This document shows positions 9,952 to 13,513 of a stretch of 17,241 nt of DNA, one piece after another (within the stretch, counting starts at the first letter, position 1; each line of letters starts with the position of its first letter). The DNA is from Cyanobacteria bacterium UBA11368 (GTDB lineage Bacteria > Cyanobacteriota > Cyanobacteriia > Cyanobacteriales > Aerosakkonemataceae), in the NCBI GenBank assembly GCA_003501785.1, contig DNOW01000491.1, positions 3,989 to 21,229 on the forward strand, given 5' to 3'. The notes below the pieces were generated by a model that was given only the letters and a program-made list of their open reading frames with translations, was not told the origin of the DNA and searched no databases. Position numbers and translations under genes: made by a program.

Positions 9952-10060
9952 ACCCCAAACCCTGAAATATTTCTTTACTTTTATTTTAAGATCGGTTTCA
10001 GGTTATGGGCTGGGACGGGCAAGATGCCCATCCCACAATAAGCCGAACGACTAAAGTCGC

Positions 10061-10092
10061 GGCTACACAAACAAAGCCCGCCTTCGCGGGCT
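10061..10092 (-). terminator. Rho-independent-like terminator for the minus-strand membrane-protein gene, embedded in a dispersed repeat copy
   Basis: On the minus strand the sequence reads agcccgcgaaggcgggct (7-bp GC stem, 4-nt loop) followed by ttgtttgtgtagcc (T-rich). It lies 34 nt downstream of the stop of the 10126..10689 gene. The same sequence block recurs at 13372-13398 and, inverted, at 13445-13470. Confidence 0.5.
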
Positions 10093-10125
10093 ATAAAATA
10101 CCAGATTTGGTATTAGGTAGTTGCC

Positions 10126-10689
10126 TTATGCTTGGGCTTTAGGCGCGACATCCCGCCTACCCCAGGGTTTGATAATAGAAATAGCAATAATCAGAACAAG
10201 GCTTGCTACTACGATCGAACCTCCAATTGTTGCACCTTTGATGTCGAACATGAACAGCGGATTAGTTAATGCTTTGATTCGTTCTGTTTGGGAAATTGAA
10301 GTGGCAGCATCTGCCCAAGGTTTAAGCCATAATGAGCCAAAGATAATCAGCAATAAAGTTGCTACCCATTTGACGATTACCCAATAAAATTTGAAAAATC
10401 CCCAAACGGTTAACCAGCATAGCAGCGTACCTGTTATAACTGATGCGATCGCAGACGGAATCACGACAAAATCATCCAGCAGTTTGACCGCTAAGTTAAA
10501 GGCGTACAGTTCATCGCCATCGGTCATTTTTAAGCTGCTTAATCCAATCAATACCATGCAAAATGCCGTGCCAATCCAAATCGCACCGGATGTCAGATGG
10601 GCAGAAACTAACCAGTGTTTTGGCAGTCCGGTTAGTTTCTTTCCAGGCCGATCCTTTTTATCTTGGATCGTCATAGAGGGATTGGTCAT
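10126..10689 (-). CDS. Hypothetical integral membrane protein, about 4 predicted TM helices
   Basis: A 187-aa ORF with four hydrophobic stretches (AIWIGTAFCMVLIGLSSL; VVIPSAIASVITGTLLCWL; WVATLLLIIFGSLWL; IGGSIVVASLVLIIAISII) and a basic N-terminal tail. I recognised no specific family. Confidence 0.55.
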   Translation of the reverse strand: MTNPSMTIQDKKDRPGKKLTGLPKHWLVSAHLTSGAIWIGTAFCMVLIGLSSLKMTDGDELYAFNLAVKLLDDFVVIPSAIASVITGTLLCWLTVWGFFKFYWVIVKWVATLLLIIFGSLWLKPWADAATSISQTERIKALTNPLFMFDIKGATIGGSIVVASLVLIIAISIIKPWGRRDVAPKAQA

Positions 10690-11620: not shown

Positions 11621-13075
11621 TTAGGTTTCTACTGCAAAGGCTTCGGGGTCAACGTCCCAATTTACCCAGCGAATGGCTTCACGCGCAGAAGTGAGGTTAG
11701 GAGGAACGCGCAAGACGTGAATATGATTCGTGCTAGGGCAAGTCATTTTCAACAGATGAATCGGTTCGTCATCGATATCCGCCTGAATCTTCAACAGCGA
11801 GTATTCACGCCAAGTATCTAGTTCTACGGCTTCAAGCTCTTGCAGGATGCGATCGTACCCAATTCCTTGAATCAAAACGCGCCGAAGTTCTGCGTTTGGT
11901 TCTTTTAGTAGCCATTGCGATCGCCAATTCTTAGACAAAACCGCTCCGTACTTCTGGGGAATCTCGGTTCCATGCCAAAAATAGTAGCACTCCCACTCTG
12001 ACCATTGAACGGCAGGCTGACCGTCTGCGTGAAGCCGATCGTCTTGAATTCGCATTACCGGAAGGGTCAAGGCAACGACTTTTGTTTTTGTCACCCAAAA
12101 ACAAAACAACCCTGCTTCAACCGCATCTACAAATGGCATCCACACAGCACACAATTGCTCGTGCTGAGGCTCGCTAGTCGTGGAATTAACGCAAACAGTA
12201 GCCCACCCAGCAGCCCACAGAGCCTCCATTTCCTTCATATCTATCGGGTCGCCAGCCCACGCTGCGATAAAAGCAGCATCTCTGGCACTACCCTTCGCAT
12301 CAAGCCACGTACCAAAAGACGGAGCATCCCACGCAGCATCCTCCGCATACTTAGACGCGCGATCGCTGGGATAATCATCTTTAGGTTTCCATCTGGCCCT
12401 AAATGAATCAGTAAATGAATCAGCCCATGCAGATCTAGCAGATCGAAATGCAGCACCACTCCCAGGCTTCTTCACATCATCCCACACAGCATTCTTCGCA
12501 TTAGACCAAGCCAAAGAAAACGCTATACCAAATACCGTATTAAACGCCTCATTCCACAAAGGATTACTGGCAGGTTTCCTGACAACTCTAAGTGCTGCAT
12601 TAAATGCCGCATCAGATGCGGTTTTATACGCTGCATCAAATGCCGACTTAAACGCGCCAGCGTGTGGGGCATCACTTACCGCCGCCAACACTACCTCTAA
12701 AGCAGCCTCCAAGACAGCCTCTAATACCGCATCACTTGCAACCTCACTCACAGCATCATCGGCAGCTTTCCTCGCCGCTTTGTGAGCCGTATCCAAAACA
12801 GCTTTCCTCGATGCCTCAAACGCCTTTTCCCACTGGAAATCATACTTACCACTCTCCCACGCCGCATCAAATGCCGCATAAAACGATTGATAAATCTCAA
12901 CAAAGCGATCGCGCTGATTCAGTGCTATTAAATGTTGGGAAAACGCATCTCGAATTCGCTGTTCGCAAATCTTCGGGTTTTCGTAGTCGATCGCAGCGAG
13001 TCGAGCGATTATCTGTTGAGCCTTGGGCAATAGATCGGTCGGCAACATAGCGCTATCGGTGCGGTTAATATTCAT
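11621..13075 (-). CDS. Hypothetical protein with N-terminal Ala/Trp-rich degenerate repeats and a DUF6745-like C-terminal domain
   Basis: The N-terminal roughly 300 aa are full of xAxDAAW/AAF motifs (AAFDAAWESG, SAFDAAYKTASDAAFNAAL, AAFRSARSAWADSF, AEDAAWDAPSFGTW, ARDAAFIAAWAGD). The C-terminus (YYFWHGTEIP...NAELRRVLIQGIGYDRILQ...HVLRVPPNLTSAREAIRWVNW) matches my recollection of the conserved core of actinobacterial/cyanobacterial DUF6745 proteins (...NAEVRRVMIERYG...LRVPP...TAREAVAWTF). I ran no search. Confidence 0.65.
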   Translation of the reverse strand: MNINRTDSAMLPTDLLPKAQQIIARLAAIDYENPKICEQRIRDAFSQHLIALNQRDRFVEIYQSFYAAFDAAWESGKYDFQWEKAFEASRKAVLDTAHKAARKAADDAVSEVASDAVLEAVLEAALEVVLAAVSDAPHAGAFKSAFDAAYKTASDAAFNAALRVVRKPASNPLWNEAFNTVFGIAFSLAWSNAKNAVWDDVKKPGSGAAFRSARSAWADSFTDSFRARWKPKDDYPSDRASKYAEDAAWDAPSFGTWLDAKGSARDAAFIAAWAGDPIDMKEMEALWAAGWATVCVNSTTSEPQHEQLCAVWMPFVDAVEAGLFCFWVTKTKVVALTLPVMRIQDDRLHADGQPAVQWSEWECYYFWHGTEIPQKYGAVLSKNWRSQWLLKEPNAELRRVLIQGIGYDRILQELEAVELDTWREYSLLKIQADIDDEPIHLLKMTCPSTNHIHVLRVPPNLTSAREAIRWVNWDVDPEAFAVET

Positions 13076-13278
13076 CGCTTTTTCTTACTTAATACCCAGC
13101 TTTTAATGCTGAAGGCAGTCGCTGCGATCGCTCTGCCGAAACTAGCACGATCGGTAATCAAGTTGGTCAGTCATTGCAGTAGCCCTACTTTTCTCCAGGA
13201 TGCAAATATAACCAATAACTACAGTCAGTCAGTTTGAATTCCGCAACTCGGCAATCAAATCGAAACATTTCTTCATCT

Positions 13279-13296
13279 TTCTCTTAATTAAGAGAA
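13279..13296. promoter_or_regulatory. 18-bp perfect palindrome ttctcttaattaagagaa in the divergent promoter region
   Basis: Read directly; it is its own reverse complement. It lies about 200 bp upstream of the minus-strand 484-aa gene start (13075) and about 220 bp upstream of the MVP start (13514). This fits a dimeric transcription-factor site shared by divergent promoters. Confidence 0.4.
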
Positions 13297-13360
13297 TCGT
13301 CGGCTAAAACAGAGAAGGAGAGGGAGCATGTCAGCAATGCAAATCTACACCAACACCCTG

Positions 13361-13480
13361 AAGGGTGCGGCTATACAAACGAGAGCCATCCTTCGCGGGC
13401 TAAAACTTTTAAAGCCTGCGTTCGCGAAGCGTTCCCGAAGGGTAGGCAGGCTTTGTTTGTGTAGCGACACCCTTTAGGGT
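13361..13480. repeat. MITE-like palindromic repeat element, about 120 bp, imperfect inverted arms with terminal hairpins
   Basis: The left arm (caccctgaagggtgcggctatacaaacgagagcc...cttcgcgggcta) and right arm (ggcaggctttgtttgtgtagcgacaccctttagggtgtc) are imperfect reverse complements. Terminal mini-hairpins are caccct-gaa-gggtg and gacaccct-tta-gggtgtc. The arm sequence gcggcta(c/t)acaaac...agcc...cttcgcgggcta also occurs at 10056-10093, and the central core gcgttcgcgaagcg recurs in reverse complement at 956-969. Confidence 0.6.
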
Positions 13481-13513
13481 GTCGGCTACTCTTTTATCAC
13501 CTTCTTTGAGTGT

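Follow-up and report, generated by a model that had tools for sequence, protein, structure and literature searches.

What is the long palindrome that stands immediately upstream of the gene for a major vault protein (MVP) homologue in Cyanobacteria bacterium UBA11368: an RNA that belongs to the vault locus, or a repeat that landed there? We addressed this question in a 17,241-nucleotide stretch of contig DNOW01000491.1, referred to here as the window, whose source is a close relative of Microseira wollei, an oscillatorian outside the Nostocales. The answer that we favour, with a probability of roughly 80%, is that the element is a non-coding selfish repeat: a REPIN-like doublet of inverted units of the repetitive extragenic palindrome (REP) type, lying within outer inverted repeats and linked to a family of Y1 transposases. 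The original prediction, made from the letters of the window, had leaned towards a generic dispersed repeat resembling a MITE (miniature inverted-repeat transposable element) rather than a locus-specific RNA. The analysis bears this out: the repeat unit occurs in at least 109 cyanobacterial loci among the matches listed in a genome scan with its 17-mer, paralogues of the element sit at unrelated loci, and the MVP loci of relatives lack it.

As plus-strand RNA, positions 13350-13485 fold into one long hairpin of -75.5 kcal/mol, compared with a mean of -41.9 kcal/mol for shuffled sequences (z = -9.0; 0 of 200 shuffles equalled it), and the minus strand folds to -65.6 kcal/mol (z = -6.9). The palindrome ends in two mini-hairpins, CACCC-TGAA-GGGTG at 13354-13367 and CGACACCC-TTTA-GGGTGTCG at 13465-13484. 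This fold agrees with the inverted arms and terminal mini-hairpins of the original prediction, but the ~120 bp assigned to the element there (13361-13480) was too narrow (Table 1); it does lie close to MVP, with ~29 nt rather than 34 bp separating its end from the conserved start codon. A covariance model of the unit, R1, matches exactly three units in the window, at 10038-10094 (+), 13426-13489 (-) and 13346-13403 (+). Because two of these are inverted at the palindrome, the palindrome is a doublet of inverted ~57-nt units around an A/T spacer. An identical copy of the right unit, in L001, reaches 63.3 bits with R1 once the insert is spanned. The third match is a solo unit near cobN, where a lone arm had been noticed before: the 22-mer GCTACACAAACAAAGCCYGCCT occurs only twice in the window, at 10062-10083 (+) and 13444-13465 (-) (0.00 expected from 200 shuffles), and near cobN it is part of a full unit. 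The element as a whole is small (168 bp), non-coding and multi-copy, with paralogues at four loci (L046, L110, L022 and L102).

Both hairpins of the unit covary. At 132 sites carrying the 17-mer GCTACACAAACRAAGCC, the unit spans ~57 nt and consists of hairpin 1, a linker and hairpin 2. Hairpin 1 has a stem of 6-9 bp, a loop of ~4 nt and at least 44 different stem sequences, and hairpin 2, which reads AGCC-YRC, loop, GYR-GGCT, is present at 114 of 128 sites. In a gapless alignment of 70 sequences, pairing in hairpin 2 amounts to 96.9%; CG<->UA and GC<->AU swaps occur there, and three pairs have changed at both positions. Seven of the eight pairs of hairpin 1 show double changes, and many of its pairs are G.U. 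The real pairing register stands well above every slid register. The linker, GGCTACACAAACRAAGCC, is nearly invariant and can be read as G-GCTAC-ACAAACRAAGCC, so that its other strand has GTAG at the hairpin foot, as in classical REPs. GCTAC follows hairpin 1 directly in all copies, which the search pattern forces, but three loci with Y1 genes (L139, L141 and L217) show it beside the gene independently of that pattern. The left unit of the window element has CTAT in place of the CTAC tag.

The unit ranges over the Oscillatoriales and Nostocales, where it was found in Microseira, Oscillatoria, Hormoscilla, Allocoleopsis, Coleofasciculus, Laspinema, Calothrix, Rivularia, Tolypothrix, Scytonema, Stigonema, Fischerella, Nostoc and other genera. 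The earlier comparison with the small dispersed repeats (SDRs) and MITEs of Nostocales was apt as to the kind of repeat, but the family is not restricted to that order, and the source is oscillatorian. The 11 non-cyanobacterial matches among those listed are without hairpins, and their number fits chance. A plasmid BLAST search gave two partial matches only, to variant units on plasmids of Gloeothece PCC 7424 and PCC 7822 (Chroococcales); the window element is a 90% match to the unit on the PCC 7424 plasmid. Further copies and conserved arms, as expected of a repeat family, were both found: the unit recurs in fetched loci of many genera, and there are near-identical full-length paralogues. In 250 kb of Microseira-clade loci we counted 77 significant units, mostly in doublets ~64 nt apart or in tandem arrays, and unseeded, MVP-centred loci of this clade hold ~15 units in ~90 kb, or ~1 per 6 kb. 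One tandem array, in M. wollei NIES-4236 (L092, 1582-2008), has at least six units with a period of ~100 nt, so the family forms higher-order clusters besides doublets. In two Logan assemblies of the same strain the contigs end inside the element, as expected at a repeat, which accounts for short-read assembly breaks at this point. Full-text literature searches with the linker and outer-arm strings matched unrelated primers only.

We considered whether the units act as terminators, as had been suggested for the solo copy. That copy lies between the 3' end of the minus-strand ORF (open reading frame) 10126-10689 and the start of cobN, also on the minus strand, and on this strand its hairpin 2 plus TTTGTTTGTGT scores terminator-like, so the suggestion is possible for this copy. 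It does not extend to the family. Of 121 units, 109 (~90%) lie between genes, and the settings are convergent for 30, tandem for 44 and divergent for 13. Their orientation relative to gene 3' ends shows no bias (46 versus 58), and on this ground we reject a family-wide terminator role.

The link to a transposase came from screening every ORF in the fetched loci with two Y1 transposases as queries; only the match confirmed by both Pfam and NCBIfam was used. This single cyanobacterial match is a 135-aa ORF (L060, 2241-2648) with a Pfam Y1_Tnp E-value of 3.9e-23 and, as its best NCBIfam model, transpos_IS200 at 73 bits (cut-off 55). The gene is bracketed by inverted units, one ending 5 nt before the ATG and a doublet lying ~30-110 nt past the stop codon. 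We searched 80 metagenome loci that encode relatives with the unit model. Of these, 20 reach 58% identity or higher, and in 19 of the 20 units (E < 1e-7) adjoin the gene, as a rule (+) on its upstream and (-) on its downstream side and in some cases as arrays; the more distant relatives gave weaker or partial unit matches. A Y1 gene between inverted units also occurs in Allocoleopsis franciscana PCC 7113, whose genome is complete (CP003630, near 6,681,888), and in a contig of the Trichormus variabilis type. The linker is also present, with variants, beside Y1 genes, an observation independent of the search pattern. The proteins are ~137 aa long and have three motifs, DH[IV]H, WQ and Y...Q..HH; of 120 homologues, 117 show the third. 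Many of the metagenome Y1 proteins were named 'REP element-mobilizing transposase RayT' by JGI. The position of the Y1 gene is exactly that of the A/T spacer of the doublet, which suggests that the doublet is a gene-less derivative of a 'REPtron'. At one locus (L156) the Y1 match is stretched to 532 nt (1201-1732) around two REP units (1615-1671 and 1744-1800); the units seem to have landed in the gene of their own presumed transposase.

The hairpin repeat is probably spread by a small tyrosine transposase. In the mechanism that we infer, a Y1 (HUH) transposase of the IS200-like 'subclass 1.2' type, present as a single copy and presumably encoded by the source genome too, would recognise the hairpins of the units in single-stranded DNA, cut and join them next to the CTAC/GTAG tag and so move them. 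The doublet, as a gene-less REPtron derivative, would have landed in the leader or promoter region of MVP, and would afterwards have lost its right outer arm and gained a 22-nt SDR5-like insert in a hairpin loop.

The element resembles the systems formed by REPs or REPINs and REP-associated tyrosine transposases (RAYTs), such as the BIMEs (bacterial interspersed mosaic elements) of E. coli and the REPINs of Pseudomonas (Bertels & Rainey 2011, PMC3116915), in having short hairpin units whose stem foot bears a GTAG/CTAC tag, in the inverted pairing of units into a long hairpin, in having hundreds of mostly extragenic copies, and in the low-copy Y1 (HUH) transposase gene between inverted units (PMC3116915; PMC3733652). 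The family thus has the covarying stem-loop, the tag, the inverted doublet, the high extragenic copy number and, in other genomes, the flanked Y1 gene of a REP or REPIN. It differs in that the unit has two hairpins and a conserved 17-nt linker, with a free stem beside GTAG, whereas classical REPs conserve the stem, and in that the associated protein is IS200-like and falls under the RAYT threshold. The REP(IN) described in N. punctiforme (gttgggtt...aacccaac; PMC3116915) was considered and rejected as a match, being another sequence than the present unit. Di Nocera et al. (2013, PMC3733652) reported GTAG-tagged stem-loops from Anabaena variabilis, PCC 7120, N. punctiforme and Cyanothece/Gloeothece PCC 7424. 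By their description, the GTAG-12, -15 and -16 families share with our unit GTAG stem-loops, dimers 20-100 bp apart, some dimers within longer palindromic shells, and G.T pairs in stems; neither Microseira nor a two-hairpin unit is described there (PMC3733652).

Several observations weigh against the reading as a Y1-mobilised REP doublet. The L060 protein is below the NCBIfam REP_Tyr_transpos threshold (24.9 versus 80 bits) and so falls outside the RAYT clade by this model, and subclass 1.2 of the TnpA-Y1 transposases is listed as having no REPs (Quentin et al. 2018, PMC6006769). The 17-mer linker was preset by the search pattern, so its invariance in the alignment is partly by construction. 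The window, in which we scanned the source genome, holds no Y1 gene, so the tie to that genome is by family. We found no clean target-site duplication or empty site for the element; in relatives the site is filled by other sequence and is not a simple gap. Finally, the outer repeats (GGGAGCATGTCA) resemble the ends of DDE-type MITEs, and a second transposase may therefore mobilise the whole element.

The survey of Y1 transposases describes subclass 1.2 as a class 1 (IS200-like), low-copy and mostly cyanobacterial group without typical IS200 end structures (PMC6006769). The unit-flanked transposases share its signature motifs, its length of ~137 aa, its low copy number and its mostly cyanobacterial distribution, but, unlike what the survey lists, the cyanobacterial members here are bracketed by a high-copy REP-like unit (PMC6006769). 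We tentatively propose, giving it a little less than an even chance, that the two-hairpin unit is the cognate high-copy substrate of subclass 1.2 Y1 transposases, and that the pair is a distinct REPIN-RAYT-like replicator that arose from the IS200 side, independently of classical RAYTs, and serves also as a landing pad for SDR5-like inserts. If this is true, the conserved part of the replicator is a 17-nt single-stranded linker and not a stem, its range takes in Oscillatoriales, Nostocales and some Chroococcales, and a transposase class thought to be repeat-free is what likely moves a repeat that ranks among the most widespread in cyanobacteria. In kind the element is already known, whether it is called a doublet of REPs or a repeat like a MITE, with an SDR-like insert nested in it. 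This widespread two-hairpin repeat does, however, seem to pair with an IS200-like Y1 class listed without repeats.

The outer arms raise the main alternative, a classical MITE that arose by deletion from an insertion sequence of the DDE type and is mobilised through the terminal inverted repeats GGGAGCATGTCAA/TTGACATGCTCC; the hairpin units would then be mere passengers or internal structure. Paralogues at unrelated loci of sister genomes align from 13322 to ~13492: L046 (from MAG CAYXCW01), L110 (Microseira sp. BLCC-F43) and L022 (UBA11372). They give the arms of this element type as GGAGCATGTCAA...TTGACATGCTCC. Both arms are present in L046, a full-length paralogue of 163 bp, and in L110; the window copy keeps only the left one, the partner arm TTGACATGCTCC being deleted after GGCTACTCT. 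The same arms enclose many 96-125-bp one-unit elements in Oscillatoria sp. SIO1A7, and a second arm set, ATACCAAATCCGG, forms shells of ~118 bp around single units (L087, L038 and plasmid locus L134); the solo unit at 10038-10094 is, by its right-arm remnant, a decayed copy of this second type. A possible 6-7-bp target duplication, CCTTTC, flanks L046. It is not reproduced at L110, where we found nothing convincing. Among arm pairs up to 3.5 kb apart in ~1 Mb of loci there was no autonomous insertion sequence with the same ends, and none of the ORFs adjoining lone outer arms in these loci is a transposase. Moreover, the unit occurs in at least three different shells and also shell-free, as head-to-head palindromes and tandem arrays, and it is units, not shells, that flank the Y1 gene. 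We therefore regard the classical MITE as rather unlikely. By their description in a review (PMC3184786), Nezha, with its ISNpu3-type ends and target duplication, and the Anabaena MITEs are similar in size (130-170 bp), in their terminal inverted repeats and very stable predicted structure, and in their intergenic location with presence or absence between close relatives; no autonomous partner was found here among the loci searched.

Table 1. Features of the palindromic element and related features of the window, with positions in the window, strand and basis.
Feature	Positions	Strand	Basis or detail
Whole repeat element	13322-13490 (168 bp, +/-2 at right end)	+	Homology of relatives breaks at 13321 and restarts at 13491; end-to-end paralogue alignment; fold z = -9
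Order of parts in element	13322-13490	+	Outer inverted-repeat arm, then a REP unit, an A/T spacer and a REP unit in inverted orientation; right outer arm absent
Left outer inverted-repeat arm (like a terminal inverted repeat), GGGAGCATGTCA	13322-13333	+	L046 has both arms, 163 bp apart
Left REP unit, degenerate	13346-13403	+	R1, 40.4 bits, E = 2.8e-12
Inner parts of left unit	hairpin 1 13354-13367; linker GCTATACAAACGAGAGCC 13370-13387; hairpin 2 13384-13401	+	Hairpin 2 is AGCCATC/GCGGGCT, two mismatches
A/T-rich spacer between units, AAAACTTTTAAA	13402-13413		Sequence; position of Y1 gene in transposase-bearing relatives (geometry of L139, L141, L137, L217)
Right REP unit, inverted	13413-13489	-	R1, 46.1 bits, E = 3.5e-14 over 13426-13489
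Hairpin 2 of right unit, AGCCTGC...GCAGGCT, interrupted	13413-13452	-	Linker 13449-13465
Hairpin 1 of right unit	13465-13484; GTAGC/GCTAC extends stem to 13461-13489	-	Sequence
Nested 22-nt (+/-2) SDR5-like insert, TTCGCGAAGCGTTCCCGAAGGG	13421-13442	+	In hairpin 2 loop after GCG; holds 14-nt core
Solo REP unit	10038-10094	+	R1, 63.4 bits, E = 6.7e-20
Parts of solo unit	hairpin 1 10048-10059; linker 10062-10078; hairpin 2 10075-10092	+	Sequence
Outer arm remnant of second type, ACCAGATTTGGTAT (compare CCGGATTTGGTAT)	10100-10113	+	Full copies in L087, L038, L016, L033 and Gloeothece PCC 7822 plasmid L134
MVP homologue	13520-16138	+	Pfam Vault, Vault_2, Vault_3, Vault_4, MVP_shoulder; full length
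Upstream block, presumed MVP promoter or leader	13250-13321	+	Kept in all Microseira-clade MVP loci whatever gene lies farther upstream; element abuts its 3' end
23-nt SDR5-like insert in PIN gene	944-966	-	Splits HIP1 octamer GCGAT|...|CGC at 939-969
Second HIP1-splitting insert (GCGAT|ATGCCAAGGGCTAGCTGCGCGAT|CGC), same family	18-40 (HIP1 split 13-43)	-	Direct repeat D11 and family listing

To understand what the element means for MVP, we compared the locus between strains. The conserved start of MVP is the ATG at 13520 (MNTAERK, 872 aa), which is kept in distant homologues; the first ATG, at 13514, is not conserved. The protein is 100% identical to P0001 ('Cyanobacteria bacterium UBA11368') and shares 96% identity with the M. 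wollei NIES-4236 protein, and its 2747 homologues at E < 1e-50, named 'colicin uptake protein' by NCBI, come nearly all from filamentous cyanobacteria. The element sits in the 444-nt gap between MVP and a divergent DUF6745 gene (11621-13075, -). Six relatives with MVP proteins 96-98% identical (L005, L007, L128, L130, L131 and L132) share the blocks 13250-13321 and 13491-13519 and lack the element. The site has three states: it is short in L132, holds an unrelated 72-nt segment in L005, L007, L128, L130 and L131, and holds the 168-bp element in the window and three sister assemblies. By this comparison, the element is a lineage-specific insertion into a variable spot of the leader or promoter region of MVP, confined to this lineage. 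We also considered that hairpin 1 was built from target-site sequence, given a CACCAAC...CCC likeness in L132, and rejected this, as the same stretch is found within the L046 paralogue. The neighbourhood is, by the same comparison, rearranged between strains: where the window has the DUF6745 gene, a duplicated fragment of the N-terminal part of a FAD amine oxidase lies just upstream of MVP in L005 (9443-9655), L007 (9440-9670), and L128 and L130 (both 2437-2649).

It is conceivable that this copy has been co-opted as a cis-regulator of the MVP leader, as an attenuator or terminator, an mRNA-stability hairpin or a source of an upstream ORF. The element stands between the MVP start and a block that all MVP loci of the Microseira clade conserve, and it is kept, like an intact and identical MVP, in all four assemblies of the strain. 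It brings two terminator-like modules to the MVP sense strand: in one, TTTGTTTGTGT comes after hairpin 2, and in the other, GCTACTCTTTTAT comes after hairpin 1. A 49-codon upstream ORF (13328-13477) runs through the palindrome, with AAGGAG in the flank (13315-13320) and, 7 nt on, the ATG at 13328 in the left arm of the element. If MVP transcription starts in the upstream conserved block, the leader would gain a -75 kcal/mol hairpin, both modules and this ORF. However, every relative does without the element at a site that is a hot spot with three states, the family has no orientation bias, and divergent, promoter-side settings are the rarest (13 of 87). We consider such co-option improbable, and a selected effect of the element on MVP is most likely nil. 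A consensus promoter scan of the plus strand found no site, and the MVP upstream regions of Aerosakkonema and Allocoleopsis gave no alignment with the window region; as nothing aligns outside the Microseira clade, phylogenetic footprinting did not locate the promoter.

The flanks of the insertion hot spot, 13313-13321 and 13496-13507, are complementary (AGAAGGAGA versus TCACCTTCT), and the proximal flank ATCACCTTCTTT is like the 3' end of 16S rRNA and lies at the expected Shine-Dalgarno position. The conserved flanks could be a leader stem that closes a variable loop; covariation in L132 gives no clear support.

The more speculative suggestion of the original prediction was a structured non-coding RNA associated with the vault locus. 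Strong predicted structure on both strands beside MVP would fit a separate small RNA that works with the vault protein, by analogy with vault RNA, but such an RNA is for practical purposes excluded by the absence of the element from MVP loci even at 96-98% protein identity and from those of Aerosakkonema and Allocoleopsis, and by the lack of an Rfam match, vault RNA included (chance-level matches only, for the whole window at the gathering threshold and for 13080-13560 at permissive E-values), with identical units at more than 100 unrelated loci and no promoter-like site found also speaking against it. The window has no tRNA or tmRNA genes. At the MVP locus, the element is best read as a lineage-specific selfish insertion, and should not be taken for a vault RNA or a conserved regulator.

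We next turn to the 14-nt core that recurs in the PIN gene. The recurrence is real and in fact extends to 16 nt (TGCGTTCGCGAAGCGT at 13417-13432 (+) and 955-970 (-); 0.01 expected), but its sequence relationships indicate that it is not, as had been proposed, a core fragment of the palindromic element: it belongs to a separate 22-24-nt insert resembling SDR5. The insert at 13421-13442 is absent from the paralogues L046, L110 and L022, which have loops of 3-4 nt at this place. It is identical to the insert in the PIN gene at 18 of 24 positions, with a compensatory inner hairpin (CCC-GAA-GGG versus GCC-GGA-GGC), and a 23-mer identical to the PIN insert is found elsewhere in M. wollei (L043). The element thereby provides an example of layered mini-mobile DNA, a 22-nt insert within a REP doublet within an inverted-repeat shell.

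The insert at 944-966 is absent from the PIN orthologues in L005 and L007. As a result of these 23 nt, the PIN/VapC-like gene (585-1013) is frameshifted and truncated: it encodes 142 aa, compared with 189 and 172 aa in the orthologues, and the homology continues downstream in another frame. The helix-turn-helix (HTH) gene upstream of it (75-581) is intact, so the two may be a decaying toxin-antitoxin pair.

Insertion into the HIP1 octamer is a recurrent feature of these inserts. About 230 nt upstream of MVP, a HIP1 site is split by an insert in L005, L007, L128 and L130 and intact (GCGATCGC) in L131 and L132. The junction motif has 23 matches in 1 Mb, compared with ~4 expected, nearly all of them in the Microseira clade. 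In Aerosakkonema (L135, ~1290-1330), an SDR5-like insert lies in a degenerate HIP1 upstream of MVP (GTGAT|ATGCCTACGGCAGGCTAAGCCAA|CGC). Insertion between bases 3 and 4 of HIP1, GCG^ATCGC, is given as the hallmark of SDR5 (PMC4390886). The likeness of our inserts to SDR5 is one of behaviour as described in two papers (PMC4390886, PMC5861425): the inserts of 22-24 nt follow precisely on the third base of HIP1, have an internal hairpin with compensatory changes, nest in minitransposons, and leave filled and empty sites between close relatives. In one later paper SDR5 is 21 nt long, whereas the window inserts have 22-24 nt. SDRs are reported as limited to Nostocaceae (PMC5861425), whereas the present inserts are in the Microseira clade and Aerosakkonema. 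SDR5-like HIP1 inserts thus occur outside Nostocaceae and can inactivate genes, as in the frameshifted PIN toxin gene.

Other nested inserts of 25-50 nt that end in GCGAAC (for example CTTGTCTACGACACGCTACGCGAAC) are found in hairpin 2 loops in other genera (L018 and L032); several families of mini-inserts thus seem to prefer this loop as a place to land. Elsewhere in the window, a perfect tandem duplication of a 20-mer (TTAAATAATGGCAAATAATT x2) lies at 2008-2047, in the gap upstream of ORF 2136-3062.

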